Below the pieces are notes generated by a model that saw only the letters and a list, made by a program, of their open reading frames with translations, made no database searches and was not told where the DNA came from. DNA of 64,000 bases, from IMG/VR virus record IMGVR_UViG_3300011008_000016, positions 96,001 through 160,000 of that record; one strand, written 5' to 3'. Made by a program: the position numbers and the translations under genes. Source of the DNA: a virus (Duplodnaviria; Caudoviricetes). Positions within the stretch are counted from its first letter, which is position 1. Every line of letters begins with the position of its first letter. Positions 24,122 through 51,531 of the stretch are shown piece by piece.

Positions 24122-24146
24122 TATAGTTCTCCTTTCTTAAATTTAT

Positions 24147-33121: not shown

Positions 33122-35398
33122 TTAACCAGCCATGTAAAGCTCAATCTGACTCTTTAATTCATCTGCTACCTCTTCTACAAGGTCATCAAAGCTCGTCATA
33201 TTTCCAATGTAAATTTCTCCAGATTCCAACAGGTCTAATCTTGTTCTTGCTAAATCCATAGCAATAATCTTCCGCATATTCTCCGTTGTCTCCAGATACT
33301 TCTTTCCATTGTAGATATGCGTCTTTATACCCGGTTCATCGCTAAGGTCAAGAATGTCATATTCATTTGCCAATTCATATCCCATCTGTAGTAAATGAAC
33401 CTCAAGCATTTCAACGTTCTTATTTGTCATAAGACCCGTTACCGGTAAATCATAGACTCCTTCATAATTATCCTGAAGAGCACTTCCCAGAGCCATTCTT
33501 GCAATTGGTGAATTCCTCTGGAATAAGAATTCTTTCACGATATACTCAGGATTCATAAACATCAGATTGTTCTCAGTCTCCTGACGACCAAATCGGACTG
33601 GCGTGTTCGAATGACGAATAATAAATTTCTTTGCATCATCCGACTTATCTGGCAATCCATAGTTATTGATTGGACCGGTGCTACGTACAGACAAACCTTT
33701 CTTTGCAGATTGCTTCATCTTCATAACGTGCATATATCCAACATATTCTGGCTTAATTTGTTTTACCCATCTCTGAGTATCTTTCTGCCAGAAATAAATG
33801 TCATACGGTTTCAGATAATCGAATGTATCATATACTTCGTTTACACAATCCCACATAAGTTTCTTATGCCAGAACGATTCAATGTGGACGTATATACCGT
33901 AATCCTCGACATACTTAAAGTATTCCAGTTTCTCCTTCTCTGTATGACAAGTCTCGATATAGTCTTGATAAACCTTATTCTTCTGGTCTTCATTATAGAT
34001 GCCAAGAAACGTGAAGAAATCCTTTTCCTTCTCTTTGGAAGTCTTCATTGATTTCATATGGTCTCTAATCTGTCGAGCCTGAGCAGTTATTGTCTGTTCA
34101 TACAACTGGAAGATATTCAATCGACCAGGAACGCCTAAAGAGTCAAAGATGACATCTGCAACTTCTCCATTTCCAAAGTGAGGCATTTCTTTTCTTGGAC
34201 GTATCTGGGAGATAACCCCTTTATTCCCATATCGTCCAACCAATTTCTGTCCTTTCGATAATCCAACTTTCCGTTTAACAAGGAAATAGATAACGATATT
34301 AGAGAACGCCGAATTATTATCGTCTTTAATCTTATAACCGGTTGCTTCACTCTTATCAAGTAATTCCTTAGACCGTTTGTTCCAATCTTTGATAGCATTG
34401 GATACATTATATCCGGCATCAATCAACTCCTGCGTTGCGTCTCGAACTCTCTGATGGAAATCAATATCCATATCAATATACCGAAGAATCTGAGAGTTAT
34501 ACTTTGTCTCAACAAGCTCTTCCCTCGGCTTATTACAGAAGATATCAATATCCACGATGGTACCGGTATTATAAAAGTTCAAATCTGATTGCATCGTCTT
34601 CTTCATATTCGATGCTTTCATATCGAACAGTACCTGAGAAGTATTGAGCATTTTCCAGATACAGAGTTTATTATTCTTAATAGCTTCTCCTATATCTGGG
34701 AAACACTTATAATGCTCATCATCGCCATAAGCGTTTCCAAGGAAGTTATTTTCGTTAATTGTAACTTTAACCAGCTCTACCTCTGTACTCACAAAGGATT
34801 TTGCAAACGTATCCGATACAACAATTGCATCTTCAATCGTGTACATATCCAACCGATATACAAAGTTGACATTCTGTCCAAACCCATAATTGTCAAACTT
34901 ATCATATGAAGTTGGTCTGGTTAAAGTAGTTCCTTTCTTAATATGATCTCCTTCTTTGAGTTCATCTAATACATGATGGTCATACTGGAAACCATATTTC
35001 TCAGGAAGATTCTGTACGTCTTGCTTATAGATAAGATCATATTCATTTCGGTCTCTATTATAGAATATGATAACCGAGGGTTGTGTTTTGCTTGGAATAT
35101 CCAAGTCCCTGAATTTTGGAATAACTCGCCAAACATCCAGATCAGACTTCGCTGTAATGTTATAGGTCGAACGATGACCAAACATATTCTCAGAGTTTGT
35201 AAAGACATACGGAAATTCAGTATGTTCTACTACAACTCTTTGCAACTGATGATTCACATCCATAATGGTACGGGAAGAATCCATGTACGCTGGATATGTT
35301 AAAGAAGATATTCCAAGAATGGAATTATCTCCTTCCAATTGTCTCTGTTTCTCTTCCAGTTGAGGCATGAGAACAGATTTACTTGGATTTAATGCCAT
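33122..35398 (-). CDS. Non-virion multisubunit RNA polymerase beta subunit, C-terminal part
   Basis: EDAIVVS, GQKLVGRYGNKGVIS, DVIFDSLGVPGRLNIFQLYE, VRSTGP, PVRFGRQE. Confidence 0.93.
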   Translation of the reverse strand: MALNPSKSVLMPQLEEKQRQLEGDNSILGISSLTYPAYMDSSRTIMDVNHQLQRVVVEHTEFPYVFTNSENMFGHRSTYNITAKSDLDVWRVIPKFRDLDIPSKTQPSVIIFYNRDRNEYDLIYKQDVQNLPEKYGFQYDHHVLDELKEGDHIKKGTTLTRPTSYDKFDNYGFGQNVNFVYRLDMYTIEDAIVVSDTFAKSFVSTEVELVKVTINENNFLGNAYGDDEHYKCFPDIGEAIKNNKLCIWKMLNTSQVLFDMKASNMKKTMQSDLNFYNTGTIVDIDIFCNKPREELVETKYNSQILRYIDMDIDFHQRVRDATQELIDAGYNVSNAIKDWNKRSKELLDKSEATGYKIKDDNNSAFSNIVIYFLVKRKVGLSKGQKLVGRYGNKGVISQIRPRKEMPHFGNGEVADVIFDSLGVPGRLNIFQLYEQTITAQARQIRDHMKSMKTSKEKEKDFFTFLGIYNEDQKNKVYQDYIETCHTEKEKLEYFKYVEDYGIYVHIESFWHKKLMWDCVNEVYDTFDYLKPYDIYFWQKDTQRWVKQIKPEYVGYMHVMKMKQSAKKGLSVRSTGPINNYGLPDKSDDAKKFIIRHSNTPVRFGRQETENNLMFMNPEYIVKEFLFQRNSPIARMALGSALQDNYEGVYDLPVTGLMTNKNVEMLEVHLLQMGYELANEYDILDLSDEPGIKTHIYNGKKYLETTENMRKIIAMDLARTRLDLLESGEIYIGNMTSFDDLVEEVADELKSQIELYMAG

Positions 35399-35418: not shown

Positions 35419-36003
35419 TTATTGTATTTTTTCTACACTAATCTTGAATTGTTTATGGTGATAGCCGTAAACAAAAACTCCACAATGATCACAACCAACG
35501 ATATCTCGAATCACGCATTGTTTGCATAGTTCAGCATAACTCTTATCAGGAATTTCTATTCCACTACCATCAGTTGTTTTAAATTCCTCTACCTCCGTTT
35601 CTTTAATATCGTTTTTATCAGTTTCTTCTGATTCTTTCTGACGTTCCTTCTCAAGTTTGTATTCTTCACTGATTGATAACGTTCCTTGGGAAACTCCAGA
35701 TTTAGATGGTTTTCCTAACTTCAATGACGGGACTGTAACAAGTTGATTGTCCCTTAACTTTTCCGGAACTGGCATCTCAACTATGTCGTGAGGTTTGGAC
35801 TCTTCAAGAGATTTTTGAAGTGCCCATGTCTCATCGATATTTTTTGGTTCTGGTTCTTTTTTATTGTTAAGTGCATCTAATACCCTTCTGGTATTATCAC
35901 CTGATACATAACTATTTTTATTCCGTTCATCAAATTCCTTAAAATCTTCAATAGTCGTATTCTTTAGTTCCTTTCGACTATCAGAAGATATTAGTCCATT
36001 CAT
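35419..36003 (-). CDS. Hypothetical protein, disordered with C-terminal Cys cluster
   Basis: CKQC...CDHC; early motif at 36026-36033. Confidence 0.65.
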   Translation of the reverse strand: MNGLISSDSRKELKNTTIEDFKEFDERNKNSYVSGDNTRRVLDALNNKKEPEPKNIDETWALQKSLEESKPHDIVEMPVPEKLRDNQLVTVPSLKLGKPSKSGVSQGTLSISEEYKLEKERQKESEETDKNDIKETEVEEFKTTDGSGIEIPDKSYAELCKQCVIRDIVGCDHCGVFVYGYHHKQFKISVEKIQ

Positions 36004-36035
36004 AACATCACCTCCTTAGGAACTATAATATAGTC

Positions 36036-36620
36036 CTAAAAGCTTTTCTTGCCAATTAATCGTCCAAGATATTGTCTAAGAGAAGCTTCAGCCATATCAA
36101 GATTTACATCCATATCTTGAATGATCTCCTGATAATCTTCGTTCTGTTTCTTTAATGATTTAACAATAGAAGAATACTGTTCAATAAGACGTTGATTTTC
36201 TTCTATAAGGTTTTGATATGTATCTCTTTGCTCTCGAATCTTCTCGGTAACATCTGCCACATTCTTTTTCTCAGTATCAATTTTCTCTATCATTCGTCCA
36301 ATGTATTCTTTATTAAATTCTGCACCCAATCCGAGATCGATAGAATACAAAGTGATTACATTTTGTCTTACTGCATCTGCGATAATCACCCAAGTATCTT
36401 TAAGAAATACCTGAACATTCCCTTTTCCTCTATCGTCAATTTGTTTTCCTTCATAAATCATAGTCCCGTATCGTATCATTAAATTGATATCCGATACGAT
36501 ACGGGATTCATTATTGACGATGAATTGCGTGATATCTGCTATGTTATCTTTATCCCGCAGACGTTCAGCATATCTCTCTTTGGCATGTTGGGAAATCTTA
36601 TATGTGTTTTTATCGTCCAC
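36036..36620 (-). CDS. Hypothetical protein (HAxERxxER N-terminus plus coiled coil)
   Basis: ISQHAKERYAER; GTG start with SD. Confidence 0.7.
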   Translation of the reverse strand: MDDKNTYKISQHAKERYAERLRDKDNIADITQFIVNNESRIVSDINLMIRYGTMIYEGKQIDDRGKGNVQVFLKDTWVIIADAVRQNVITLYSIDLGLGAEFNKEYIGRMIEKIDTEKKNVADVTEKIREQRDTYQNLIEENQRLIEQYSSIVKSLKKQNEDYQEIIQDMDVNLDMAEASLRQYLGRLIGKKSF

Positions 36621-36646
36621 TATTGGACCTCCCTTCTCCCATGAGA

Positions 36647-37888
36647 TTAAAGTAAATCACGCATCATTTGTTTGATATCCATCTTCCTTTTTGCACTACG
36701 AATCAGATTGGAATCATCTGATGTATCAATAACCGGAATAAGTGAACGAAGTGGGTCTTTACAAGCCCTAAGAAGAGCTGATACAACTTCTGGCTTATCC
36801 CGAAGTTCGTTCATCATAATTCTTGTATCAAACTTTACATCAGGAGCAATCTCAAAGTGAGAACCCGGATTCCTACCAAGAATCAATCCCTTCTCCTTCG
36901 CAAAGTGCATCAATGTAATAATCTGGTCGAACCCAGATTCCTGTACGAACTCCATGGTTGCTTTCATGCCACCAATAGAAGTACGAGATTTCAGTATATA
37001 AGCATCTGTAAGCACACCATTCCATCCATTTACTTCCTCAGAAGAAATATCATCTTTTGAAGTATGAGGAAGCCAACCAATGATAGATGATGTAAGAAGC
37101 CTTGTCTTGTTACCACCAGACATCCGTTTTCCATTCAACATGAATGTCATTTGTTTCGGCTTTGAGAAACCTCCCGGTGCTGGCATATCATCATCCAGAT
37201 GAATGATGACGATTACGTTAATATTGTACTTATACATTGGCTCTAATGCATTTCTAAAGAAATTACCATTATAGATAGCATTACGACCACCTGCTGTCAA
37301 ACCATTGATTGTATCGATTGCTTCATTCTTCGATACGAACTTCATAATAGAGTCAATAATCATAACTGTTGGTACGTAGTATTTATACTCGTTGCCCCAA
37401 ATGTCTCTCTGTCCTGTACTATAGACATATTTATTCGGCTCGGCTGCCTTCTTTTCACCAAGTTTGATGATTTCACTAAGTACATTTTCCCATGTACAGT
37501 TATCTCGTTCAATTGAATAAGAATCTTCAATCTGCTGATTTGACCAACCCGTCAACGCCTGGACACGGTCATATGTTGCGCTTTTCTCACCATCTCGATG
37601 AATAACCGAGGATAATTCTCCAAACGGTTCTACTATGTTAGCTGCCGCTTGAATTGCCGCAGACGTCTTACCAGATGAGGTAGGACCTGTAAAAATCGTA
37701 AATGAACCTGCTGGGATTCCTTTGTGGACTTCTTCTACAATACTCCCATCAGGTAATTTTCTGATATAGATTGCACCGAGTAATTCATCCAATATAGGAA
37801 ACCCCAGTGGATAAGATACCGATACAACATTGCTTGCGAATAAGCCATCTTTTTTATTTTCTTCTCTTATCTCAGAAAGAAAGCTCAT
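36647..37888 (-). CDS. recA: RecA/UvsX-like recombinase
   Basis: GFPILDELLG, GIPAGS, GPTSSGKTS, MIIDSI, SGG. Confidence 0.88.
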   Translation of the reverse strand: MSFLSEIREENKKDGLFASNVVSVSYPLGFPILDELLGAIYIRKLPDGSIVEEVHKGIPAGSFTIFTGPTSSGKTSAAIQAAANIVEPFGELSSVIHRDGEKSATYDRVQALTGWSNQQIEDSYSIERDNCTWENVLSEIIKLGEKKAAEPNKYVYSTGQRDIWGNEYKYYVPTVMIIDSIMKFVSKNEAIDTINGLTAGGRNAIYNGNFFRNALEPMYKYNINVIVIIHLDDDMPAPGGFSKPKQMTFMLNGKRMSGGNKTRLLTSSIIGWLPHTSKDDISSEEVNGWNGVLTDAYILKSRTSIGGMKATMEFVQESGFDQIITLMHFAKEKGLILGRNPGSHFEIAPDVKFDTRIMMNELRDKPEVVSALLRACKDPLRSLIPVIDTSDDSNLIRSAKRKMDIKQMMRDLL

Positions 37889-38060
37889 TACAACTTACCT
37901 CCTTTTCGTTTTATAGTCTATATAATTGTATCTATAATTGTTATTAGTCAGAATTTCTATTATATAGAAAAAATAAAAAGGATAGAGAAGAGTGGTAACG
38001 TCTTACCACTCTTCCCATCTAACTGTGAAGGAACAAATGAAATAATGATATTAAGCTAAA

Positions 38061-38966
38061 TTATCGGTTACCATTTCTGCGATAGTTCTTACCACCACCA
38101 GCACCGTTAAACTTCTGCGGGAAATTTACGCTGGGATTACCCTGTCGCTTATTCTTCCCATTACCATGTTGCTGCCTGTCATTCTGTCGGTTATTGTTTC
38201 CACCGTTCTTCTTTCCATTGAACGGTTTTTCCTGCGAACGATTCCGCTGCTCATTTTTCTGCGACTGAATCTTTTCGGATTCTGCCAAGTATTCTTTTGC
38301 CTCATTGATATCAACATCAACAACGCAGTTCTTGACAATCTTGTTATCTGTACGAGAAGATAACTGAATTGCACCAATTTCCGCATCGCCCTGTGTTACA
38401 TACATATATACAGGGAACTTTAGGTTTGACCAGATAGGCCATTTCACCATAGCAAAGATAATCTGATATTCTCCTGCCGTCGCAATGAATGGACGTGTAG
38501 CGAGATTTCGGTTATCAACCACCAGTCTCGTATCATCTGCCTTATCAACAATAATAAGCACCATATCCCGAGGGAATCGCTTTTTATTGTCTGATGTATC
38601 TTCAGGGGCTTCTTCAACCTTGATGGGGATGATTTCGTCTCCCCCACCCTGCATCAGAGCCACTTTAGTATCTTTCACATAAACTGCCACTTCCGTGGTC
38701 GTCCCATCGTCATCCAGAATGTTTGCCGAAACCACTGTGTCCGTCTTCTTCAACGAGTCGGTCAGTTTTCCAATACGTTCGATAGACCGCCTGATACTCG
38801 TCGAAAGAAGGGGAAGATTTGACTTAACGATATCAACCGGAATCGAAGGTGTTTCTGAATCGCTCGGAAGCCAAAACGAGATTTTCGTCTCGTCCCCGTT
38901 CCTTTCTGTCTGAATCTCAATCTTGTTAGTCTTTCTGTCCTTTGTGAAGTTCTTAATAAAGATCAT
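38061..38966 (-). CDS. Hypothetical protein with N/G/R/Q-rich disordered C-terminal tail
   Basis: ...KKNGGNNNRQNDRQQHGNGKNKRQGNP...GGGKNYRRNGNR. Confidence 0.75.
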   Translation of the reverse strand: MIFIKNFTKDRKTNKIEIQTERNGDETKISFWLPSDSETPSIPVDIVKSNLPLLSTSIRRSIERIGKLTDSLKKTDTVVSANILDDDGTTTEVAVYVKDTKVALMQGGGDEIIPIKVEEAPEDTSDNKKRFPRDMVLIIVDKADDTRLVVDNRNLATRPFIATAGEYQIIFAMVKWPIWSNLKFPVYMYVTQGDAEIGAIQLSSRTDNKIVKNCVVDVDINEAKEYLAESEKIQSQKNEQRNRSQEKPFNGKKNGGNNNRQNDRQQHGNGKNKRQGNPSVNFPQKFNGAGGGKNYRRNGNR

Positions 38967-39102
38967 TTGTAATCTCCCTTCTTGTAACTGTAATATGTTC
39001 TATTCGCGTTAATTCGTGAATTAATTTCCTGTTATATCCCATATAAAAATAAATATGGGGATAGCCGAAACCATCCCCATATATCTGGGCACATAGAAAT
39101 CA

Positions 39103-40275
39103 TTACGCCAGATGAGACATAATCTCCCTGTCATCCATGGCAACCAGAAGACCCTTACGAACATTCTCGAATTTAGACGCATCTTCTGCGTTGAAGATTG
39201 TCGGTTCTCCATCATGTTCTTTCTTCCAGTTTCCGACAAACTTGAAGACATACGCAATCTTATCAATATCCTGCGTATCCAGCTTAGAGTAGAGCATCTT
39301 AACAAAATCCTGATAAACCCTCTTTAGAACTTCACCGTCTAAATCCTTTTCCTCTTTCGGATGGGATACCAGATACTTCCCGATAACCTTCACGCCGGTA
39401 TTATTCTTACCGAAGAACTCATCATACAACATGCCCTGAACTTCCCAGTTCAAGACATCCATATTATCTTCAGCATGAACCAGCATCTTATCGAGGAACC
39501 TCGGATAAAACGCATCGATGTTCGCTGCATTCCATTCGCTACCAACCATCGGGATTGCGATCGCCAAGTCCAATACAAGGTCACGAGTTACCCCTGTCTT
39601 GGAGCTAATATCTGTAATTTCGGCGTTCCACATCCTCGGAAGAATCTCAGTCGCATACAGCCTTACGACATCCCCATGCATCCGGTTATAATTCGTTTCG
39701 AGAGCCGTTGACAGTAAGAATCCAATGGAACGCCAAATCTTTCCATACGTTCCTTCATCATCCACCCAGAAGTTTCCTTCCAAAACCTTCTTCAACGTCT
39801 TAGAGAAATAAGACGTTGTTGAAAGCTTTACAAGCTTATTTGCCGCATCATTGAACTGCGGCGAATTTTTCTGGCTATAATAAGCCCGGATATGCCGAAC
39901 AGCATCAGGGAACCGATCAATCATGATGTCCTGAAGGGCCCTGAAGTTATCCGTATTGTCACTAAACTCATCAACGAAATCAAAGATAGCCTTTGCCCGA
40001 GGGTCATTCTTGACTTCCTTCTGGGGCTGCGGATTCCTGTCGATACCATCATCGTTTTCCATCTCAGCACGCATCTCATCGGTCAGATATGAACTTCCGA
40101 TATAGTTATATGCTGAGGTGCTATAATTCCTCTGCTGATTGTCATTCTTGTTGCTCCAACGATTCTGACTCCCGTCGTTATCGTTTCGGTTATTATTCCT
40201 ACGCTCACGACGGTTTCCACCGTTGTTGTTTACCCGTTCTCCTGCGAGAACTACTTTACCATCCAATAAACTCAT
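39103..40275 (-). CDS. Hypothetical helical protein with N/R-rich disordered N-terminal tail
   Basis: NNNGGNRRERRNNNRNDND...; early motif at 40362-40369. Confidence 0.75.
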   Translation of the reverse strand: MSLLDGKVVLAGERVNNNGGNRRERRNNNRNDNDGSQNRWSNKNDNQQRNYSTSAYNYIGSSYLTDEMRAEMENDDGIDRNPQPQKEVKNDPRAKAIFDFVDEFSDNTDNFRALQDIMIDRFPDAVRHIRAYYSQKNSPQFNDAANKLVKLSTTSYFSKTLKKVLEGNFWVDDEGTYGKIWRSIGFLLSTALETNYNRMHGDVVRLYATEILPRMWNAEITDISSKTGVTRDLVLDLAIAIPMVGSEWNAANIDAFYPRFLDKMLVHAEDNMDVLNWEVQGMLYDEFFGKNNTGVKVIGKYLVSHPKEEKDLDGEVLKRVYQDFVKMLYSKLDTQDIDKIAYVFKFVGNWKKEHDGEPTIFNAEDASKFENVRKGLLVAMDDREIMSHLA

Positions 40276-40387
40276 CTTGTACCTCCTAACTGTAAGATAA
40301 CATTGTGTGATTTATAAGTAAGACAAGGTGACATGAAAATCACCTTGTCTTCTTACCATTGTAATATATTCTTCAACCCAGGGTTAC

Positions 40388-41671
40388 TTATACAGATGCA
40401 GCACCCTTCTTTTCCATGAACTTCTTCAAAAGCTCCTCTTTCGTAGAACCACCATTGTCGGAAGCCTTTACCAGACTGGACTCATCCGCAAATGACTGTT
40501 TCGCCTTAACATCACGAAGCCTGGATGCGGTATCCAATTTACTCAGCTTTGACTTTGCCGCTTTCCGACCAAGAATCGCCTCTTCCATTTTCTGGCTCTG
40601 TGCAATGATTCTATCAATAACCATTGCGGGTTCAGTTAATCCAGAAAGAATCAATGCAACGATTCCGTTATCATCATCGGAAGGGTTCGACATATCTTTG
40701 ATATGAGAACCAAAGATTTCCTGAACGTCACTCTTTACGTTAATCTTAACATCATTGAACTCATCGCCGAGACTGTACATCAATGCAGAGGCTGTAATCT
40801 CTTTATCAGAAACCAGTTCCGCGTGACCAGAGTTCTCGTCGATGTCTTCTTTCACGGTCTTGATGAGAGAGTTATCAATGATATCCGCAATCTCCAAGTC
40901 TTCCATAGTGTGAACGAAAATCCTGCCGGGTACAGACAGCACGGTCAACATATCCCGCTGGTCCATTCCGCCGGTTCTGGTAGGATAGATGAAATCACCC
41001 TGAATCGCCCTGAGGTCTTCGACAAATGCCTGATTAATCATAGCGGCTGCACGGTTCGGAGTAACCTTTCCTGAAGGAGTCGTTTTTCCAACATAACGAT
41101 TATTATCATAAATCATATATGTCGGATTCAACTCACCAATTTCCTTGAGCCATGCTTTTGTCCCTTCAAACGCTGCCGCGCCCTCATCGTTGAACGGAAG
41201 TACTCCTGCAACGATAGTAACCTTGCTGGGATACATTGTCTGAAGCAATTCAAGCAGTTCCGTAGAAGATCCAGAGCCATAACCACCACCGGTGGATGTT
41301 GTAAGAACAATCACATCGTTACCCTCGATGATGTTCTGGAAATTCTTGTTCAGGGTGAGTCCAGTGTTACTAAGGAAGAATTCCTTTGCCTTAGCCCTGT
41401 CCTTACCTGTACCCTTTCCGTCACCAACTGGGAATTTCACAACCTTCGGGCACGTAATCTGATCCAGATCCCTCTGGCTACCATTGATTGCAATCGCATC
41501 AATTCCCAATGCCTCAGCCGCAGCAGAAGCCATCATACATCCACAGTTGCCGGTACCAATGACGGCAATCGAAAGAAGTTTCTCCTCATCTGCAATCGTA
41601 GGAATCGCTGTAGAAACGCCGTCCACAGATTCCTCATCACCTGTTGTAATGTTCGTTGTTACTTCACTCAT
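40388..41671 (-). CDS. Tubulin/FtsZ-family GTPase (PhuZ/TubZ-like)
   Basis: IGTGNCG (T1), GKGTGKDR (T3), GGGYGSG (T4), DNN (T6), MDQRD (T7). Confidence 0.9.
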   Translation of the reverse strand: MSEVTTNITTGDEESVDGVSTAIPTIADEEKLLSIAVIGTGNCGCMMASAAAEALGIDAIAINGSQRDLDQITCPKVVKFPVGDGKGTGKDRAKAKEFFLSNTGLTLNKNFQNIIEGNDVIVLTTSTGGGYGSGSSTELLELLQTMYPSKVTIVAGVLPFNDEGAAAFEGTKAWLKEIGELNPTYMIYDNNRYVGKTTPSGKVTPNRAAAMINQAFVEDLRAIQGDFIYPTRTGGMDQRDMLTVLSVPGRIFVHTMEDLEIADIIDNSLIKTVKEDIDENSGHAELVSDKEITASALMYSLGDEFNDVKINVKSDVQEIFGSHIKDMSNPSDDDNGIVALILSGLTEPAMVIDRIIAQSQKMEEAILGRKAAKSKLSKLDTASRLRDVKAKQSFADESSLVKASDNGGSTKEELLKKFMEKKGAASV

Positions 41672-41678
41672 GTTCTTT

Positions 41679-41985
41679 ACCTCCTTTTGGTAATCTGTTG
41701 TATGTTTTTCTGACAGTATTGTCAGAAATACTCATAACTGGATTTGCACCAGTTCACATAAGTGTTTACCTTATTGTGAATAATCTACCACTATTATGAG
41801 TTAATACCGTATATTCTACAAACAGAATTGCTGGGAGCATAGAAATCACTCCCAGCAAGCCATTTGTTATACGGGTAATGAAGCCCGTGTATGATGACCC
41901 AACTGTAGCCCGTATATTTATAATAAACATACATACAGAAAGGAGTTTCACACAATGTTTGTCATCACGGTTTCTTCATCAAGAG
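41679..41985. ncRNA. Multibranched structured element in the tubulin leader
   Basis: At least 5 local hairpins enclosed by long-range pairing of 41681-41706 with 41925-41945, which includes the tubulin SD. Confidence 0.5.
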
Positions 41986-41987
41986 AA

Positions 41988-41995
41988 TAATATAG
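41988..41995 (-). promoter_or_regulatory. Early-type promoter CTATATTA for tubulin
   Basis: Motif lies just after terminator 42009-42047. Confidence 0.6.
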
Positions 41996-42066
41996 TAACA
42001 AAAAAGATTATGAGAGTGGGGACATCCGTGTCTCACACCACTCTCAATGTTATGGACAAGGTAGGA

Positions 42067-42252
42067 TTACTCTTCTGAACGATCATACCCTACCATTGTC
42101 GGCCCCTGGTTTGCTTCCGGGATAGATTCAATACCGGCAACTTCCATCGTTGCAGCCAGTCCCGGGAGAACTCCGCTGTTTGCCAGATTCTGCAACACTT
42201 CCTGATTCTTGTTATTATTTCCGTACTGATTGATACTTAACGTGGCACTCAT
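42067..42252 (-). CDS. Small hypothetical protein
   Basis: 61 aa, SD AAGGAGG. Confidence 0.6.
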   Translation of the reverse strand: MSATLSINQYGNNNKNQEVLQNLANSGVLPGLAATMEVAGIESIPEANQGPTMVGYDRSEE

Positions 42253-42267
42253 TTCATACTACCTCCT

Positions 42268-42846
42268 TTAATTTTCAGATTTATCTGACTGTTCATCTTC
42301 TGACATTTTCTTATTAAACTCATCAATCAGAAGTTTACTCGCTTCTTTCATAAGTTCGCTTGCTTCTGTTGAACTTGACATAGCAAACGGAATTTCTCCA
42401 GCCTTTGGACCACGAGGAATAACAACTGCCCCATCCTGCTTTGACTGAACATTCTTTTCTTTATTCATAATCTGAAGTTTTGCCGTTTTATCATATATAA
42501 TGAAACCGTCTATTTTCACCTGGCTGATACCCTGTATCATAGATACGGCAATATTATCAATAACCCCCATATAATTTGAAGCTAATTTCACCAAACTAAT
42601 CAGACGAATGGTTCCAACATAATCCCCGTTAAAGCTTTTAGATATCTTTGTAATCTTACCAATGGTATTTTCCATAGTAGCTACAAATGGAACTCCCGGT
42701 CTGTGTAGATACTGATATACGACGGGAATATCAACTTTGTCGTGTTTTATAGCTTCATTTAAAGCTCGTACAATATGGGGATTCATATGTTTTATCTGAG
42801 TGGCTGTTCGAATTATCACAGGTGCATCTGCTGTCTTCTTTTTCAT
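42268..42846 (-). CDS. Hypothetical protein
   Basis: 192 aa, coupled to the RNAP subunit gene. Confidence 0.7.
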   Translation of the reverse strand: MKKKTADAPVIIRTATQIKHMNPHIVRALNEAIKHDKVDIPVVYQYLHRPGVPFVATMENTIGKITKISKSFNGDYVGTIRLISLVKLASNYMGVIDNIAVSMIQGISQVKIDGFIIYDKTAKLQIMNKEKNVQSKQDGAVVIPRGPKAGEIPFAMSSSTEASELMKEASKLLIDEFNKKMSEDEQSDKSEN

Positions 42847-43595
42847 CGATTCCCTTTACCTCCTTTTTTAATTGTTGATATGAGAAGATTGCTTGGTGTA
42901 ATTAAGTCTGTACTTAATCCGGCTGTCATATAATATGTATCAACTGTCTCCAAAGCTAAACGGTCTTCAATACCAGCCTGTTCTTCTATATCTTCTAATG
43001 AGCAGGACCCCGTTTTTGCAATTTGAGCATATGCATAATTCTTTCTTTGTAACCCATCTGCACGGAATCCATTAATTTCTCTAAGAATATTATCTGCACC
43101 AATAACCTTCAATGCGATATTCTCTTGATCAGATGAACGTCCATTCTTATCATGTCCAACGACCTGACCAGTTGTCGCTGATCGTTCATCAATATGGGTT
43201 GATGTACTATTTTTCTTGGAATTCGTCTGCTCCATACGCTTCTCAATATGATAACCCGTGATACATTTTTCCTTAGTGACCATAGGCTCTTCTTGAGACA
43301 TCGTAACATGAGGCAGAATCACATATTCTTCCAGAGGAATTTGAAGTACATCAGCCGCAGCTTCGATTTGTTCGATTGTAACCTCTCTCTCGAACTCCTT
43401 GATTTCTAACGTAAAGTTAATATTATTGTCATCAAACATACATTTCATGAAGTTTGAAAATTTTGTATCAGACATAGAACCGAACATCTTGCGATACCTA
43501 TTGGAATTTGTTTTGGAAGGGTCCATTTTATCCATCACAGCATATACAAGATTCTCTGCTTGTTTCCGGTTCTTTATGTTAATCTTATATTGCAT
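42843..43595 (-). CDS. Virion-type RNA polymerase beta subunit, C-terminal fragment
   Basis: ITGYHIEKRMEQ...ERSATTGQVVGHDKNGRSSDQE parallels the beta C-terminal G..Y..KL.H...R......QP......GQR.GEME region; second, distinct betaC in this window. Confidence 0.75.
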   Translation of the reverse strand: MQYKINIKNRKQAENLVYAVMDKMDPSKTNSNRYRKMFGSMSDTKFSNFMKCMFDDNNINFTLEIKEFEREVTIEQIEAAADVLQIPLEEYVILPHVTMSQEEPMVTKEKCITGYHIEKRMEQTNSKKNSTSTHIDERSATTGQVVGHDKNGRSSDQENIALKVIGADNILREINGFRADGLQRKNYAYAQIAKTGSCSLEDIEEQAGIEDRLALETVDTYYMTAGLSTDLITPSNLLISTIKKGGKGNR

Positions 43596-43632
43596 AAGCT
43601 ATCTCTCCTTTCACCAAGGGTTGGTATTTTCA

Positions 43633-43908
43633 TTATACCCTTGTGCCTTGGTGATAAAATAGATAGCATCTCTCGATTTCTTTTTTATCCTTTGCACCGA
43701 TAGTAAAGTTCTTCGATACCATCATCCCATGTTTATCTTCCATAACAGTAACTAAACCTGTTCTGTCATCAATATCTTCATAATCAATTTCTACGGTATC
43801 ATTATTTCTATAATACCAATCAACCATATCACAAAAAATAATGCTTCGACTCAAATCAAGTCGAAGCGGGGCAACTTTTCTGGTTGCCCCAACTTCAACT
43901 CCTGTCAT
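43633..43908 (-). CDS. Hypothetical protein
   Basis: 91 aa ORF. Confidence 0.6.
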   Translation of the reverse strand: MTGVEVGATRKVAPLRLDLSRSIIFCDMVDWYYRNNDTVEIDYEDIDDRTGLVTVMEDKHGMMVSKNFTIGAKDKKEIERCYLFYHQGTRV

Positions 43909-43926
43909 AACATCTTACCCCCGCAC

Positions 43927-44352
43927 TTACTTAACGTAATACTCAAAAAGCATAGAAAGATTTGGTTCCATGATAGAAGTCTTGTTTGTCTCACTCTCAT
44001 TCAGAACCAAAACATTGTACGGACTTCTCTTCATTAAAGCCCCGTCAATAATGACACCCCACTTCAATTTCCCAGCATAGTTCTTGAGCTGATTTATCAC
44101 CTTATTATCCAAATCCTTTAAATCCGATTTGAATATAAAGAATGATCTCATCTTCCACTGGAAATGAATATCTGCTGGGGTATCGCACTTGAGTTGTTCC
44201 TTTGCAAACCGAGTCATGTGCTTGACCAATTTCTCATGGTCTCCCTCCGTAGTGTCAGAAAACCCGATAATAAGACCTAACTTATCGCTCGTAACGACAA
44301 GTCCTGTCTGATTTGCAGCAGTTTTCTTATGTCTTTCGATTGTCAGTTCCAT
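43927..44352 (-). CDS. Hypothetical early protein
   Basis: 141 aa, early motif at 44391-44398. Confidence 0.7.
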   Translation of the reverse strand: MELTIERHKKTAANQTGLVVTSDKLGLIIGFSDTTEGDHEKLVKHMTRFAKEQLKCDTPADIHFQWKMRSFFIFKSDLKDLDNKVINQLKNYAGKLKWGVIIDGALMKRSPYNVLVLNESETNKTSIMEPNLSMLFEYYVK

Positions 44353-44468
44353 TGCAAAAGTCTCCTTTCTCTGTATAGTATGTACAGAAATAATATAGGT
44401 TTAAATTAAACCTTAAAAACATAAATCGACATAGATGATATAAAACCACCTATGTCGATAGTGTTCCA

Positions 44469-45812
44469 TTAAGCCAGTTTCTCTATTGTAAAAATAAAGA
44501 ACACAAAGATTGCCTTTCGGTAGTTTCCTAACGATCCGACTGTACTGACTTTCTTCCTCAAATCTAAATCCACTACCCACTTGTCAAGAAGTTTCTTTAT
44601 CTCGATAATGTTCTTATTATTTGTATTTGACTGCCGATACAACTTAATGCAGTAAACATAGAATTTATCTGTGGAAACTGTTTTCACCGAAGCATCAGGG
44701 TCTGGATTATCGGTTAAGTATAAAGACAATAGCCTTTCTACCATCTGTTTAATTTCTTCCCTGTTATCTTCTGATATTAGTGTTAATACCGCTGTTTGTA
44801 ATGTATTTGTCGAAACATCACTATTTCTTGCAGCAATTTCCATTAGTCGTCTGTCAGGACCGTTTACTACAAGGTTTGTCAATACCTTATTTGTAATTCT
44901 GTCGATTGCAAAGCTATCATTATCCGCCTCATAATAATGCTCATCAGAATAATCATCTCTTTCAGATTGAAGATAATTATCATTCTTGATGTTCTCCTCA
45001 AACTCATTACGAAGCTTTTTCATAAAACTATTGATACGAGAAGTTGCATCATTAATAAACTTCAATATATCAACATCAGATCCTTTTGCAATCCTTGTTT
45101 TATGCGTATTATAACAAGTTTGCATAATATCCATAATAGCTGCAAGAATTGTACCGGATTTCTTGAGCTTAAATCTTTGAGACAGATTCGCTACAGTATA
45201 TGCCATAACAGATTCGTTTGGTGGATACTTATAGTATTTACCAAACATGAACTGATAAATGTTTGTTACCATATAAAGAAGACCGTTATTTAAGCCTTCA
45301 TCATTCTTTATTTTTGCAAAATATCGAATTGATAAAACAATAGCTATATTGTATGGCGTATTAAAGTTTGACCAACTCGATGCCGTAATTGAGCCATCCC
45401 TATTTGTTTTCCACCCAGGATTGTTTCCCTCTATACTTGATAATGTATCTCTAATCAATGGCTCCGTTAGACCAACACATTGAACAAAATTTGTCACATC
45501 TGTTTGTGCTCGAACAGGTTTTGTAGACGGACCAATTGTAGAATAACTTGCTATGTTCTTTGCCATATATTGGTCTATGATATCCTTATATGTCTTTAGA
45601 TTTCCTTTATCTGATAAAGCTTTTTCTACTAAAGGATACAACTTTGTCCTAAGAACGGCAGAATCTCCTTTAATAGTAGCTTCCATTACATCTTCTAATG
45701 TTTCTACATTTATATCTGATGTCTCTACTAATGTATTCATTTGCTCACAAATAGTAGATATTGGTGACGATTTATAATCGTTAAGTATACTTTCAAGAGT
45801 TATCTCATCCAT
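44469..45812 (-). CDS. Putative virion (head) protein with processed N-terminus
   Basis: N-terminal TLES, ICEQ, LVET, VMEA motifs; CACA-N6-TA at 45836-45847; start at the ATG after AAGGAGG. Confidence 0.65.
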   Translation of the reverse strand: MDEITLESILNDYKSSPISTICEQMNTLVETSDINVETLEDVMEATIKGDSAVLRTKLYPLVEKALSDKGNLKTYKDIIDQYMAKNIASYSTIGPSTKPVRAQTDVTNFVQCVGLTEPLIRDTLSSIEGNNPGWKTNRDGSITASSWSNFNTPYNIAIVLSIRYFAKIKNDEGLNNGLLYMVTNIYQFMFGKYYKYPPNESVMAYTVANLSQRFKLKKSGTILAAIMDIMQTCYNTHKTRIAKGSDVDILKFINDATSRINSFMKKLRNEFEENIKNDNYLQSERDDYSDEHYYEADNDSFAIDRITNKVLTNLVVNGPDRRLMEIAARNSDVSTNTLQTAVLTLISEDNREEIKQMVERLLSLYLTDNPDPDASVKTVSTDKFYVYCIKLYRQSNTNNKNIIEIKKLLDKWVVDLDLRKKVSTVGSLGNYRKAIFVFFIFTIEKLA

Positions 45813-45977
45813 TTGTTTTACCTCCTTTCCTTGATTATAGCCTTGTGCAAACAAGAGACGGAAGGTACCAAAAATATGGAACCTTCCTTAATTACACCCT
45901 AAAAAGACTAACTAACAAAATTTCAATAATCATACGTCATCATCAACGATTGGCTTATCATTATTGAAGTTCTCCAA

Positions 45978-46217
45978 TTAATCTCTATTTCCTAAATCAT
46001 TATCTATGACGACTTTAATGCCGTCAGGATACAATTTCTGAATGTCATTCGCTAAGATGTTTGAATGCTTTGTGAGCAATTTTGCCCAACTACCATAAGC
46101 CTGATTTACCACGGAGGCACGTAGATGTGCCTCCGACCTCTTCCCTCGCGCATTGTTGATTCTAATCTGTTGTTCAACATTGCGACGTGTTGAATCTTTC
46201 ATTTTATCATTTACCAT
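45978..46217 (-). CDS. Hypothetical protein
   Basis: 79 aa ORF after gyrA. Confidence 0.5.
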   Translation of the reverse strand: MVNDKMKDSTRRNVEQQIRINNARGKRSEAHLRASVVNQAYGSWAKLLTKHSNILANDIQKLYPDGIKVVIDNDLGNRD

Positions 46218-48666
46218 CCTTCACGCGAATTCTAATGATAGAATCACCACGTCGGACTGGTGCAACTTTAGCACATTTAGCATGTCTTGAAAGCACCTTA
46301 ATACTTGACACTTCCACATCCGTCTTATCACCAGACTGCATTTGGAAAGTCAATGTAGATTGGTAAAGTTTATCTGTCATAGGAATGACTTTGAAAACTT
46401 CATCGCCATCATTTAAACGAGTCAGTTCTAACATAGCTTGCCGTTTCTTAGTTGCATTGAATGCAGAATCGAGTTCTACAATCTTTGCAAATCCCTTCTT
46501 CGTAATAATACATACTTCATGTATACCACGATTCACACAAGCGTTCTGAACCTCATCTCCGTCCGCAAGTGCCATTACACGCTGTCCTTTGGTGTTTCTA
46601 CCTGTGGATGGAGTCATTGATAATCTTAAAATGATACCGAATCCGGCTTTTGTATAGATAAGCCGTTCGTTATCACTGTCACTAAGAACTCCCATAAAGC
46701 AAACTTCATCCCCCTCATTTAAGGAGATTGCTCCGATACGAGTACGTGTTATCACGAAATCAGATAACGGAGTTGCTTTGATTAGTCCTCTCTTAGTAAA
46801 GCAATAAAGCCGATATTTTTGCGGATTATCTTTGATACTCTGAATTGAAGTTTTAATCGCTGTAATCGCTGTACCGGTCATACCTAAAAGTTCCTGTAAT
46901 TCCATTCCCTTAGCCGATGGATCAGATGCAGGGATTTTATCAATTGGTACATAACACCACTCTCCGAGGTTACTCCCAATATGAATATAATCTACCGAAG
47001 TAATGTCATGGAAATAAGCAATTACGTCATCATCAGGTTCTAAGAATCCGATACCAACTCCATTCGGAGGAAGACGTTTAATATACTTCTTTGTAACAGC
47101 TACCCGATAGTGGAATACAGGAGTCTCTGTATCTTCCGGTTTAATAATGCGACAGCATCTCGGTTTTCCGAATAATTTCTTGCCTTCTTCCAATTCATCC
47201 CAGATTACTTTCTTAATCCGTTTCGTGGATGAAAGGATATTTTCCTTTTCCTTAATACGATCATCGATTTCCGCATAGGCTTTCTGATATTCAGCAATAC
47301 TGCCTTTCTTCTGAGATTTCATTCTCATATTTGCGATGAGGTTTGCCTGATAGGATGAAAATCCAAACTTAGATGTAAGATTATCAATGATTTCGTCATC
47401 CGTTTCAGATGTCTTAATCACGTTGAAGACTTCATCGATTAACTCTTGGTTACCCAGTCTAACCAAAGCTTCTAACCGATGCTTCTCTTCTCTGATTTTC
47501 AGTAACTCTTTTGCGATTGTCCGGTGTTTGATATCCACCCGCCAATCGATCCAGGTTATTATAGCATCTTTCAGTGGTACTGCTCCACTGTCGGACATCA
47601 TCCGAGTACGGTCTGCATAATTCAATAATATCTGAGCATATGATTTTAACCCGATATTTTTATCGTTATACAACTGATCAATAACATACGTTGGATCGAC
47701 TCCTTTCTTTAGGAGAATCCAAAATTCTGTTGTTTCCAGATTACTCTTATCGGATATGTCCTTGATTCCCAGTGGATTGGTCTTTTCACGCGCTCCTATA
47801 GCACGGATAATCCCATCCATAGTAGTTTTCTCCGGGAACCCATTACATAAAATGTAATTGCCTTCTTGATGATAGACTAATTTCGCTCTTATTCGTACTG
47901 TACCGGAACCAGTCGCACATACATCTCGTATAATTCCATCATCAATAATGTCATAACCCCTTGGACTATCTGGAAACAGATAAACATTCTCCATGTCCGG
48001 ATTTTCCAAAAGTGCCTGAGTAAGTTCAAACGCTTCAATCAAGTTAAACGGAACTTTGACAAACGCATTTCCCCAAGCAATTCCCGTTGTAGGATTCAAT
48101 AAGAAGTTTGGATACCTTGCCGGTAATACAACCGGTTCCACATCACTTCTCAAGTAGTTTTGAGTCATATCAATGACCGATGCATCGAATTCCTCAAAGA
48201 AACATTTCCAAGCATATTGACTTAACCTTGCATCCAGATAACGAGGAGCGGCTGCATCATCGCCTGCAACAGAACCTTCATTTCCATCCATATCTATATA
48301 GAGTGCGGTGTTCTCCCAAGTCTTTGTTACGTTCTCAAAAGCCGTAGCAATACTCTGGTCACCGTGAGGGTGATATTTGGTCGTTGCCGGTAAAAATTCC
48401 AAAGCCTTCTGATACCTTTTATCCGGGTACAATTTCTTATCATGATACATAAACCAAAGAGTACGACGGACTACGTTAATAAGTCCATCATATATCGTTG
48501 GTAACCCTCTCGCTACGGAGACATTTGCTCCATAGCGAGTAATACGTTCAATCGTGTATTCACCAGCATCAATGTCCTCGATGTTCTGGTCATACATCTC
48601 TTGAGTTTCAACAACTTTAGCGGTATTCTTCTTTTTAGAAGATTTCTTTTTGACTGCCAAAGTCAA
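46207..48666 (-). CDS. gyrA: Type IIA topoisomerase subunit A (GyrA/ParC-like)
   Basis: RGLPTIYDGL, YHPHGD, AAPRY (catalytic Tyr), PVVLPARYPN, beta-pinwheel repeats; no canonical GyrA box. Confidence 0.9.
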   Translation of the reverse strand: MTLAVKKKSSKKKNTAKVVETQEMYDQNIEDIDAGEYTIERITRYGANVSVARGLPTIYDGLINVVRRTLWFMYHDKKLYPDKRYQKALEFLPATTKYHPHGDQSIATAFENVTKTWENTALYIDMDGNEGSVAGDDAAAPRYLDARLSQYAWKCFFEEFDASVIDMTQNYLRSDVEPVVLPARYPNFLLNPTTGIAWGNAFVKVPFNLIEAFELTQALLENPDMENVYLFPDSPRGYDIIDDGIIRDVCATGSGTVRIRAKLVYHQEGNYILCNGFPEKTTMDGIIRAIGAREKTNPLGIKDISDKSNLETTEFWILLKKGVDPTYVIDQLYNDKNIGLKSYAQILLNYADRTRMMSDSGAVPLKDAIITWIDWRVDIKHRTIAKELLKIREEKHRLEALVRLGNQELIDEVFNVIKTSETDDEIIDNLTSKFGFSSYQANLIANMRMKSQKKGSIAEYQKAYAEIDDRIKEKENILSSTKRIKKVIWDELEEGKKLFGKPRCCRIIKPEDTETPVFHYRVAVTKKYIKRLPPNGVGIGFLEPDDDVIAYFHDITSVDYIHIGSNLGEWCYVPIDKIPASDPSAKGMELQELLGMTGTAITAIKTSIQSIKDNPQKYRLYCFTKRGLIKATPLSDFVITRTRIGAISLNEGDEVCFMGVLSDSDNERLIYTKAGFGIILRLSMTPSTGRNTKGQRVMALADGDEVQNACVNRGIHEVCIITKKGFAKIVELDSAFNATKKRQAMLELTRLNDGDEVFKVIPMTDKLYQSTLTFQMQSGDKTDVEVSSIKVLSRHAKCAKVAPVRRGDSIIRIRVKDGK

Positions 48667-49011: not shown

Positions 49012-51531
49012 TTAGTTATCAATGTCATCCAGTGTAAAGTTGGCAGTTTGAACCATCTGTTTCCTGATTTTGGTCTCTTTCTTATTCTTTACGAAGAGAT
49101 TATTGAGTGTATTAGTAAACCGCTCTACATCTGCAACAGTATATCTTGCCAACCTACGGTAGTTTGGATTCATAGCAAACTTCCACATTTCATACTTGGA
49201 CATTTCGCCCCATCCTTTATACCGCCCTACGATATATGGAGAATATTTCTGACAAGTTTCCATAATCTGTCCGATAGTCATCCTATCAACATGACTAAAC
49301 TCTGAATTTTCTCCACGTCTATCATAGAATTCAAACTGGTATATACCATCGTTTGATTTATTGATAACTTCTCGTAAGAAGTTAATTGTTTCCATCATAG
49401 ATTTACTAAGGGATACTGATACAAAATCTCCTCTAAAGCAACCATAGATCATACCATCATTGAAATTCAACTCATGGTCTAACTCTTTAATATGTTTCTC
49501 AAAGTTAGGTGTAGCTGCAATGAACTCAAGGATTTCTTTCGGAACCGTCTCAAAGTTAGATACGGAATCCAATACTTCATAATACCGACGATTTGCCAAC
49601 AGAAAGCGCTTCATATTATCATTGGATATAAAATCGTCTCCTTCACTGAATTTAATCCTTGAGTATTTCACACAGTTATTTTCAAACCTATCATAGAGTT
49701 CTGCTTTTGACCAAAGATAATTCTTTTCATCAATGTCAGTTTTACTCATCTTATTTGCAGCCGCTTGAGACTCTGCTACCTTATAAAGAGGAGTGATAAC
49801 CCTGTAACAATGACCGTGTAAAATCAAATCAGAGGCTGCCCCATAAATTGACGACAATGTCAACCCTGACATATGGTCACCATCAACATCGGCATCAAAA
49901 CCAAATATAATCTTATCGTATATAAGATTTTCCTCATTGAAGTGACCGCCATAACCACAACCAAGTACATTATCCAGCAAAATAGCATATACGTTAGTTG
50001 GCTTTAATGTCCTTGATTTACTGACAGCGAATTCATGCCAAAAGTTATCGGGTTTACCTGTAAAATTAAGAATCCCTTGATAATCTGGATTGAATCTTGC
50101 CTTACGAGCTTGACCTCCAGCAGAATCCCCTTCTACCAAGTAAAGTTCCAATTTAACCTTCAGGTTTTCTTTTGGAGTGCCAATCAAGTTCGCTGCAACA
50201 TAATTCCCGATGAGTTTTGAATCCATTAATGACGGAAGAGAAGTCTTTACTTTCTTCCTCTTATTTGCTGCGTCAGTTCGTATCCTTGCATTTAACTTAA
50301 TGAACTCAATGATTTTCGTTAAGTTTTTCTTTCCGTCGGGAGTTTCAAAGTATGCACTAATGGACTCCGTATACATTTTCTTGAGTGGCTCAGTAAACTT
50401 TCTATTACCAAGTTTATGCTTGGTCTGAGACTCAAACCCTGTACTCATCGTTGTATTGAAATTGATAACTGCCGCCAATCCCATCAAAGCATCAGAAGCT
50501 TCCAATTTCAAATTGTCATTCTTCCTTTGAGAATCTTCTGCGGCACTTAGTAAATACGTTGATAAAGCAGTCTTTAATGCGTTGACATGAGTACCGCCAT
50601 CAATTTGCTCAATCATATTGGTAAATCCATATACGGCTGAGTCAGTAATCTTTGGTGAATAATTAAACGCGAATTCGACGGATAATTCTCTATCCATCTC
50701 AATTAAGTCAATAGTTACAGTTCCATCTTCCTGCTCTGTCTTAACAGGAATATTGGTTTCCTTTAGTTCCATCCGATTACTTAAAACAATAGGTTTCCTC
50801 ATAAGGTATCCAATATCATTTCCAATAATCTCCGGTATAAATCCACCGACGTTTCCTTCCTTATTCTGGTATACCTTATTTAAGATTTCTTTCCCATCCG
50901 AATCCGTTGCCTTTAATGTAATCTTGATGGTCGGTTCTAATGTAAATACAGTTCTTCGAAGCCATTCTGCAAATGTGTCAAGGGGCACATAAGCATCTTC
51001 CCCTAAGAAAGCAGTAGAAGGCTTAAAACCAACACGAAGTCCGTGTATACTTGGGTCCGCTGTTCCCATTCTATCTTCAACTTTTCTACCATTCTCAAAC
51101 CGTAGAAAACGTGATTGTCCTTCTCTTGTAGAGGTAATCTCAAACCTCTCTGATAATGCGTTAGTTGCTGTAAGACCAACGCCGTATTCACCACCAGATG
51201 CTCCACCTGAAGCTCTGTCCATTTTTGTACCAGACTGTAATACGGTACATGCATTTTCCAATTCATTGAACGGAATACCACGACCAGTATCCGTAAAGTA
51301 AGTCATACCCGTTTCGCCATCTGAGAATATCATCATATTCCCATCGGATAAGGTACGTTCATTCCGATGTTCGTCTACCATATTATTAACCATCTCATGT
51401 GCCAACTGTTCTGAACCCGCTGGTCCACGAAATGAAATGTAGAGGGTAGGCGATTTCTGAAGTTTATCGATGTCATTTTTCAACGTTGTGAATTCATCAT
51501 CCACAATCATTGACTTCTTTTTAGTCGCCAA
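49012..51531 (-). CDS. gyrB: Type IIA topoisomerase subunit B (GyrB/ParE-like)
   Basis: EMVNNMVDE, DTGRGIP, GVG..ATNALS, GGTH, VEGDSAGG, DADVDG, RYKGWGEM. Confidence 0.93.
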   Translation of the reverse strand: MATKKKSMIVDDEFTTLKNDIDKLQKSPTLYISFRGPAGSEQLAHEMVNNMVDEHRNERTLSDGNMMIFSDGETGMTYFTDTGRGIPFNELENACTVLQSGTKMDRASGGASGGEYGVGLTATNALSERFEITSTREGQSRFLRFENGRKVEDRMGTADPSIHGLRVGFKPSTAFLGEDAYVPLDTFAEWLRRTVFTLEPTIKITLKATDSDGKEILNKVYQNKEGNVGGFIPEIIGNDIGYLMRKPIVLSNRMELKETNIPVKTEQEDGTVTIDLIEMDRELSVEFAFNYSPKITDSAVYGFTNMIEQIDGGTHVNALKTALSTYLLSAAEDSQRKNDNLKLEASDALMGLAAVINFNTTMSTGFESQTKHKLGNRKFTEPLKKMYTESISAYFETPDGKKNLTKIIEFIKLNARIRTDAANKRKKVKTSLPSLMDSKLIGNYVAANLIGTPKENLKVKLELYLVEGDSAGGQARKARFNPDYQGILNFTGKPDNFWHEFAVSKSRTLKPTNVYAILLDNVLGCGYGGHFNEENLIYDKIIFGFDADVDGDHMSGLTLSSIYGAASDLILHGHCYRVITPLYKVAESQAAANKMSKTDIDEKNYLWSKAELYDRFENNCVKYSRIKFSEGDDFISNDNMKRFLLANRRYYEVLDSVSNFETVPKEILEFIAATPNFEKHIKELDHELNFNDGMIYGCFRGDFVSVSLSKSMMETINFLREVINKSNDGIYQFEFYDRRGENSEFSHVDRMTIGQIMETCQKYSPYIVGRYKGWGEMSKYEMWKFAMNPNYRRLARYTVADVERFTNTLNNLFVKNKKETKIRKQMVQTANFTLDDIDN

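Follow-up and report, generated by a model that had tools for sequence, protein, structure and literature searches.

A TubZ-like tubulin gene and its conserved downstream neighbour in an uncultivated AR9-like jumbo phage

Genes at the tubulin locus

The window analysed in this study is a stretch of 64,000 nucleotides, positions 96001-160000 of the 244,309-bp IMG/VR record IMGVR_UViG_3300011008_000016, a virus record rated 100% complete by CheckV. Almost all genes of the window were carried on the minus strand, and three consecutive minus-strand genes are the subject of this report: a TubZ-like gene of the tubulin/FtsZ-family GTPases (427 amino acids (aa), 40388-41671, PF00091), directly after it the gene of a 390-aa protein (p390, 39103-40275), and after p390 the gene of a 301-aa protein (p301, 38061-38966). 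The tubulin and p390 genes were found side by side in most of the tubulin loci compared, and we read them, tentatively and with a little less than even confidence, as a two-gene module composed of a TubZ-type filament plus a dedicated partner, present in a large clade of AR9-like jumbo phages which are uncultivated and lack chimallin.

The tubulin homologs formed 91 clusters, all of them metagenomic and many on contigs of 220-245 kb. No match to the window tubulin, p390 or p301 was found in GenBank phages by megablast and tblastn, and the p390 partner family is not described in the searchable literature.

The source phage is an AR9-like jumbo phage. Its closest cultured phages by the RNA polymerase beta subunit were PBS1/AR9 (34% identity), phiR1-37, Listeria LPJP1 and Staphylococcus S6/PALS_2, and both a virion and a non-virion RNA polymerase were encoded. 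Phages of the AR9-like group encode multisubunit RNA polymerases and were reported to lack chimallin (PMC10299810; PMC13282480).

Tubulin motifs and family affinity

Phage tubulins have been explained in two contexts: as PhuZ, which centres the chimallin nucleus and makes it rotate, and as TubZ, which acts together with TubR and tubC in the segregation of plasmid prophages. The window tubulin scored 51.9 bits against PF00091 (cut-off 33, E 1.5e-13). It contained the T1 loop GTGNCG (G39-x-G41-N-x-G44) and the T4 loop S126-T-G-G-G-Y-G-S-G134 (41270-41290), of which the core is G128-G-G-Y-G-S-G134; the fourth position of this core was Y or F in close relatives and the T of the canonical GGGTG(S/T)G loop in the most distant members. 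The T7 residues D237 and D240 (40952-40963) were invariant among 29 family members; acidic residues of this loop complete the GTPase site of the adjacent subunit. By reading of the c-st TubZ sequence D240 aligns with E200, the residue mutated in PMC5322520. Judged by these motifs, the gene is a predicted catalytically intact member of the tubulin/FtsZ superfamily. The original prediction had placed a tubulin with a variant GGGYGSG T4 loop and an acidic N-terminal tail at this position, and both features were recovered, the first 30 residues having a net charge of -8. Since its length differed among relatives and many had none, the acidic N-terminal extension does not characterise the family.

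A family profile (A3) composed of 29 tubulin members gave 145 bits to phage G gp138, 82-85 bits to c-st TubZ and 81 bits to CetZ, with lower scores for FtsZ (at most 65 bits), pXO1 RepX (51) and phiKZ PhuZ (35). In the single-sequence PDB search the best match of the window tubulin was CetZ 3ZID (E 9e-10), followed by FtsZ and phage c-st TubZ, and PhuZ was not among the matches. These scores place the tubulin closer to TubZ and CetZ than to PhuZ; it is not PhuZ-like, and to view it in the light of PhuZ would mislead. The likeness to CetZ (PDB 3ZID, 4B45, 4B46) covers the GTPase domain only; CetZ is an archaeal, chromosomal cell-shape protein and its gene context is not shared.

In the tubulin family a tail of 50-70 residues extends beyond the core and ends in a conserved hydrophobic tip. 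The tip is KEELLKKFMEKKG... in the window tubulin (about 40391-40441, minus strand) and VDLKDIFDKFMI or IDLDDVFNLYVKK elsewhere in the family, resembling IDINDFFSKYM of c-st TubZ. In c-st TubZ the tip touches the next filament subunit, and both the TubR-tubC complex and TubY bind to it (PMC5322520). Since the tail tip matches this interaction tip, the tubulin may be expected to function like a TubZ. We also considered the tip as a marker for the presence of p390, and dropped it when tubulins without a p390 neighbour were found to carry the tip too.

Among characterised proteins, c-st TubZ (CST189; PDB 3V3T, 4XCQ) was the best-scoring one for the family profile. It shares with the window tubulin the layout of a GTPase core, a flexible 50-70-residue tail and a hydrophobic tip, and it is likewise phage-encoded with a partner gene directly downstream. 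However, the sequence match was limited to the N-terminal domain, the downstream gene in the window encodes an unrelated all-alpha protein, and TubR (CST190), TubY (CST188) and tubC repeats were not detected in the source phage. Furthermore, c-st is a plasmid prophage, whereas the source phage is a jumbo phage with its own RNA polymerases.

The only homolog found in a cultured phage was the 'FtsZ-like' gp138 of phage G, which matched the tubulin of a relative with 27% identity (tblastn, E 2e-14) and has the tail tip LSDRLTRFTK. Phage G differs in having no p390-like gene, and a PPDK-like gene lies downstream of gp138. The gene was described only as an uncharacterised FtsZ/CetZ-like GTPase (bioRxiv 10.1101/2024.12.16.628780). 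Directly upstream of gp138 (L086:5692-7119; NC_023719 78389-79816), with start and stop abutting, lies gp137, a 98-aa protein with weak winged-helix matches to TrmB, DUF3116 and DUF4364 (E 0.01-0.02). This order weakly suggests a TubR-tubZ-like layout, of which we found no phage G description in the literature.

The original prediction had also offered the tubulin as an FtsZ-interfering inhibitor of division. An inhibitor of this kind would co-polymerise with host FtsZ or compete for FtsZ partners. A weak FtsZ similarity (41.7 bits against the FtsZ equivalog TIGR00065) and the order of core, linker and terminal peptide, superficially FtsZ-like, agree with such a role, but the score lies far under the equivalog cut-off of 295.2 bits. 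The terminal peptide matches that of c-st TubZ and is apparently without the proline found in the FtsZ C-terminal peptide, and this counts against the division role as well. The T7 loop is intact, which speaks for a dynamic polymer that assembles by itself, and a dedicated phage-encoded partner is conserved, as given below. Nothing in the results pointed to division interference, and we regard it as highly improbable and the least likely of the explanations considered.

Conservation of the tubulin and p390 gene pair

For comparison we used 65 loci, which comprised 62 IMG/VR loci picked by tubulin alignment and three distant loci. An iterated p390 profile (four rounds) matched exactly one open reading frame (ORF) in each of 54 loci. 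Without exception this ORF was the next gene after the tubulin, at a distance of -3 to 334 bp. The order tubulin, p390, p301 and a UvsX-like recombinase gene was kept in close relatives and also in distant ones with 38-43% tubulin identity. Many of the 54 loci had an alternative layout, in which the tubulin was followed by a p390-like gene (~330 aa), genes of ~320 aa and ~165 aa (the latter for a Zn-ribbon protein), gyrB and gyrA; the p390 sets of the two layouts matched each other in hhalign (95.3% probability, E 2.2e-8, 262 columns). Four of the eleven loci without p390 had no DNA downstream of the tubulin and the other seven carried the most divergent tubulins. The larger downstream genes of the outlier loci encoded an AAA ATPase, an SNF2 helicase, a serine recombinase and CapR-domain proteins, and in none of them was a fused p390-like domain found.

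Through whole-genome searches, a single p390 gene adjoining the tubulin was revealed in two further complete genomes, and neither tubulin nor p390 was found in AR9, phiR1-37, LPJP1, S6 and JD-Fnp1. Phage G and phiKZ contained a tubulin and no p390. In a reverse synteny test, P0226 mapped to contigs already in the set and P0292 had no IMG/VR entry. As a separate observation, in distant relatives (L007:12658-13836 and L009:12574-13734) the homologs of p390 and p301 were separated by an additional gene of 386-392 aa, with no counterpart in the source genome and no Pfam match.

The tubulin tail and the partner protein also differed in charge between clades. The window clade had a basic tubulin tail (+6 to +8) and an acidic partner (-6 to -21), and the other clades had tails of -13 to +2 and a basic partner (+1 to +23). 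The charge of the last 70 tubulin residues was anticorrelated with the net charge of the partner (Spearman -0.72, 50 distinct pairs, phylogeny uncorrected), and within the other clades alone the correlation was -0.38 (p 0.03, phylogeny likewise uncorrected). The two charges appear to have flipped together.

The neighbours might be unrelated to the tubulin, p390 and p301 being replication or recombination accessories and the tubulin acting alone. Both genes do lie between tubulin and UvsX within a collinear core, p301 is clade-specific, and neither protein has a fold with a known match. But p390 stayed after the tubulin in the layout where gyrase replaces UvsX and RNA polymerase, and it was missing from relatives which have UvsX without tubulin, so we consider this explanation improbable. 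The expectation that both neighbours are conserved with the tubulin held for p390, whose distribution fits an adaptor, and failed for p301, whose homologs were confined to the window's own clade (8 of 65 loci).

Features of p390

The p390 protein was composed of a disordered, N/R-rich N-terminal arm (residues 1-63, 40087-40275) and an all-alpha domain of 17 helices (residues 88-390) in an AlphaFold model with a predicted local distance difference test score (pLDDT) of 79. Sequence, profile and fold searches revealed no Pfam, PHROG, NCBIfam or PDB relative. Several fold matches were inspected and rejected: the Foldseek search of the PDB returned weak ARM/HEAT-like rows only; a VIA-wide fold search gave Rrp1/Nop52 as best match (Z 8.9) with MA3 and MIF4G at or below 8.9, values which are not meaningful for helical repeats; and an Annexin match in the ESM Atlas (0.84) was below the 0.9 level. 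In BFVD we found three uncharacterised proteins from 'Myoviridae sp.'. Clustered at 50% identity, the p390 superfamily amounted to 459 clusters among 1.84 billion representatives.

Low-complexity ends were present at the N-terminus of p390 and the C-terminus of p301. We ranked 259 non-overlapping ORFs of the whole 244-kb genome by their richest 40-aa window of N, G, R, Q and K, and p301 was 2nd and p390 was 3rd; for this reason the adjacency of the two is unlikely to be due to chance. The original prediction had noted N/G/R/Q-rich ends in both proteins followed by recA, and this description stands, with the recombinase being UvsX-like. The DNA of the p301 tail (38170-38214) and of the p390 arm (40133-40231) also contained short similar stretches, for example 19 nucleotides at 89%, which both code for (K/N)(K/N)NGGN; this similarity may be composition-driven or reflect a small duplication.

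Features of p301

The p301 protein, modelled with a pLDDT of 79, was predicted to consist of a beta-rich domain over residues 1-217 and a long helix over residues 220-246, with a disordered tail behind them (252-301). The tail (38064-38213) is polycationic, with a net charge of +11 and an isoelectric point of 12, and its composition and terminal KNYRRNGxR motif were conserved in the clade. We found no Pfam, PHROG or NCBIfam match for p301, and its profile searched against PDB sequences and the ESM Atlas search returned nothing. Among fold candidates, Foldseek against the PDB gave only weak immunoglobulin-fold (Fab) rows, and the best Z in the VIA fold search was 5.2, so that no PDB match was accepted. 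The public gene call of p301 is a 224-aa protein from an internal start (P0135). The 301-aa reading is better, because the alignment with its homologs (296-313 aa) begins at residue 1 and takes in the conserved MIFIKN start.

The second gene after the tubulin in other layouts was also compared with p301, and hhalign gave 0.2-0.3% between families and at most 1.7% between single proteins. Four of these genes (L019:10166-11074, L069:10593-11471, L024:10229-11068 and L059:10550-11545) open with a p301-like strand motif, M-[ILV]-x-[IV]-[YK]-N-x-[ST], beyond which no similarity to p301 was detected. From this resemblance, the genes following the p390-like gene in other layouts could represent a fast-evolving third component.

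Transcription signals

An early-promoter-like motif, CTATATTAT, was located at 41987-41995 (minus strand) and resembles the annotated early promoters ATATATTAT of AR9. The window contained 8 copies of this motif where 2.9 were expected, 6 of them on the gene strand. Between the motif and the start codon lies a tubulin 5' leader of ~315 nucleotides (41672-41986, minus strand), and early expression of the tubulin is plausible from its promoter-like sequence.

The spacer between tubulin and p390 (40276-40387, minus strand) contained a hairpin without a T-run, and the terminator scan found no terminator-like site between the two genes. Strong terminator-like hairpins with a T-run were found after p390 (39053-39082, minus strand; a 13-pair stem, then TTATTTTTAT) and after p301 (37985-38016, minus strand; a 14-pair stem, then TATCCTTTTT). 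Because terminators follow p390 and p301 and none lies between tubulin and p390, the tubulin and p390 genes would be co-transcribed and p301 would form a separate unit.

Chimallin and partition components

Chimallin was not found in the complete genome, as had been suspected from the window: PF25677, phrog_4795 and a phiKZ gp54 query found no match at E<=10, and as a control the two profiles recovered phiKZ gp54 with 1121 bits (PF25677) and 769 bits (phrog_4795). The profiles also had no match in AR9, two near relatives and five complete genomes carrying the tubulin-p390 pair.

These searches bear on the possibility that the tubulin is a PhuZ-like spindle positioning a compartment whose shell is non-chimallin or too diverged, with p390 as a linker between shell and filament. 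Split multisubunit RNA polymerases are common to the source phage and the nucleus-forming phages, including those with the jumbo-phage tubulin PhuZ (phiKZ gp39, 201phi2-1 gp59), and among jumbo phages a correlation of tubulin with multisubunit RNA polymerase was reported (PMC7824862); moreover, the absence of chimallin rests on profile searches only. On the other hand, two profiles with positive controls were blank in eight genomes (the source genome and seven relatives), AR9-like phages were reported to lack the protein, PhuZ reached only 35 bits with the tubulin family profile, the chimallin of the Chimalliviridae is lacking in the source genome, and PhuZ has no p390-like neighbour. We therefore consider a spindle of this kind doubtful, and a minor candidate among the explanations.

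A tubC-like iteron array was not found in 36000-46500, where only scattered two- and three-copy matches occurred. Phmmer searches with c-st TubR, c-st TubY and phage G gp137 gave no match among the genome ORFs, although TubR is small and very divergent and sequence search for it is weak. TubY is a protein with a MerR-type helix-turn-helix plus a coiled coil, and hhalign of TubY (CST188) against the p390 and p301 families gave at most 0.4%. Since the searches yielded neither tubC nor TubY, nor any TubR by sequence, the tubulin does not appear to belong to a complete TubZRC system, in agreement with the original prediction, which had seen neither TubR nor an iteron array.

It is nevertheless conceivable that the tubulin serves type III (TubZRC-like) partition in a carrier or pseudolysogenic state in a dividing or sporulating host, with a centromere and binding protein that we did not recognise, p390 or p301 being candidates for the latter. 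The closest characterised protein is c-st TubZ, with which the tail tip is shared; the nearest cultured homolog, in phage G, has the TubR-like layout with a small, weakly winged helix-turn-helix-like gene upstream; and Iyer et al. linked phage tubulins to pseudolysogeny (PMC7824862). Such a state is at odds with the encoded virion and non-virion RNA polymerases and with the early lytic-type promoter motif at the tubulin, and no iteron array within 10 kb and no TubR or TubY match were found. We judge partition of this kind unlikely, though it deserves more weight than the spindle.

Possible function of the gene pair

On the favoured reading, a TubZ-type filament with p390 as its dedicated partner, the tubulin would be a cytomotive GTPase which polymerises head to tail and hydrolyses GTP via D237 and D240 of the T7 loop, and its flexible C-terminal tail of ~70 residues would end in the c-st-TubZ-like hydrophobic tip. 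The p390 protein would occupy the position which TubR, and perhaps TubY, has in classical TubZRC systems. Electrostatic binding of p390 to the tubulin tail is probable, and p390 may either couple the filament to a cargo or tune the filament dynamics. The data show the gene identities, the intact motifs, the lack of chimallin, the conserved pairing and the phyletic pattern, and from these we infer a physical interaction of the two proteins, the cargo, the timing and what p301 might do. Given where the module lies, in the gyrase, UvsX and RNA polymerase block, the likeliest cargo would be replicating phage DNA or the replication machinery, and this position, together with the basic arms carried by p390 and p301, points to a nucleic acid. 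Early transcription of the pair from a promoter of the virion RNA polymerase is probable. The p301 protein would be a lineage-specific addition, whose polycationic tail may supply nucleic-acid binding in the window clade.

Several points weigh against this reading. The tip may serve filament assembly only, since it also occurs in tubulins without a p390 neighbour. The folded domain of p390 is acidic (net -9), the net charge of its first 87 residues is close to zero, and no DNA-binding fold was recognisable in p390. Part of the synteny is plain collinearity, because a conserved core block encloses the module, and the pairing was counted from loci selected by tubulin. The seven loci with divergent tubulins and phage G have unrelated genes downstream. 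Finally, the charge anticorrelation is suggestive only, because it reflects mostly one clade-level switch and is uncorrected for phylogeny.

A more specific possibility is that DNA is moved without TubR, the TubZ-type filament with p390 and p301 gathering or positioning replicating DNA in the absence of a sequence-specific centromere or a protein shell. We consider this rather unlikely. If true, it would amount to a shell-less 'replication factory' built from a cytoskeleton plus multivalent disordered basic arms, and to a second use of tubulin by jumbo phages, separate from the chimallin nucleus.

For the pair itself, the results would mean that abundant uncultivated jumbo phages have kept a TubZ-type tubulin outside both known settings (PhuZ with chimallin, and TubZRC). 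With the two genes there is a concrete system of two proteins in which to ask about the role of a cytoskeleton in a phage without a nucleus, and the joint change of tail charge and partner charge suggests how a tubulin tail could have switched adaptors.

Neighbouring genes

In transcription order on the minus strand, the neighbourhood begins with a gene for a 170-aa protein (p170, 51666-52178), followed by GyrB (49012-51531), a 121-aa ORF, GyrA (46207-48666), p461 and small ORFs. A fragment of the virion RNA polymerase beta subunit (p250, AR9 gp077-like, phrog_3233) is found next, and p192 and p61, both without a Pfam match, directly precede the tubulin. After p301 come the UvsX-like recombinase (36647-37888; phrog_97, E 4.6e-28), two 194-aa ORFs and the C-terminal half of the RNA polymerase beta subunit (33122-35398). 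The beta gene is undivided in the window, and in one relative (L006:15080-18675) it was divided into two ORFs separated by an HNH/NUMOD4 endonuclease gene, which looks like an intron or a split gene. We found no tRNA genes in the window.

The p170 protein had been grouped with p390 and p301 for a similar tail. It is a Zn-ribbon-like protein (CxH...CxxC) and does have a short G/N/K-rich end (rank 10 of the 259 ORFs), but it travels with gyrB and not with tubulin. Its relatives were weak (phmmer E 7e-5; both also touch DUF2321, E 0.028). They lie directly upstream of gyrB in both layouts, in the alternative layout after the tubulin cluster, so p170 goes with gyrase rather than tubulin and may be a gyrase-associated factor.

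The stretch richest in N, Q, K and G in the whole genome was located outside the window, in a 210-aa protein (genome positions 23569-24201, minus strand) composed of a small N-terminal domain, a Q/N/K-rich middle and an acidic tail.

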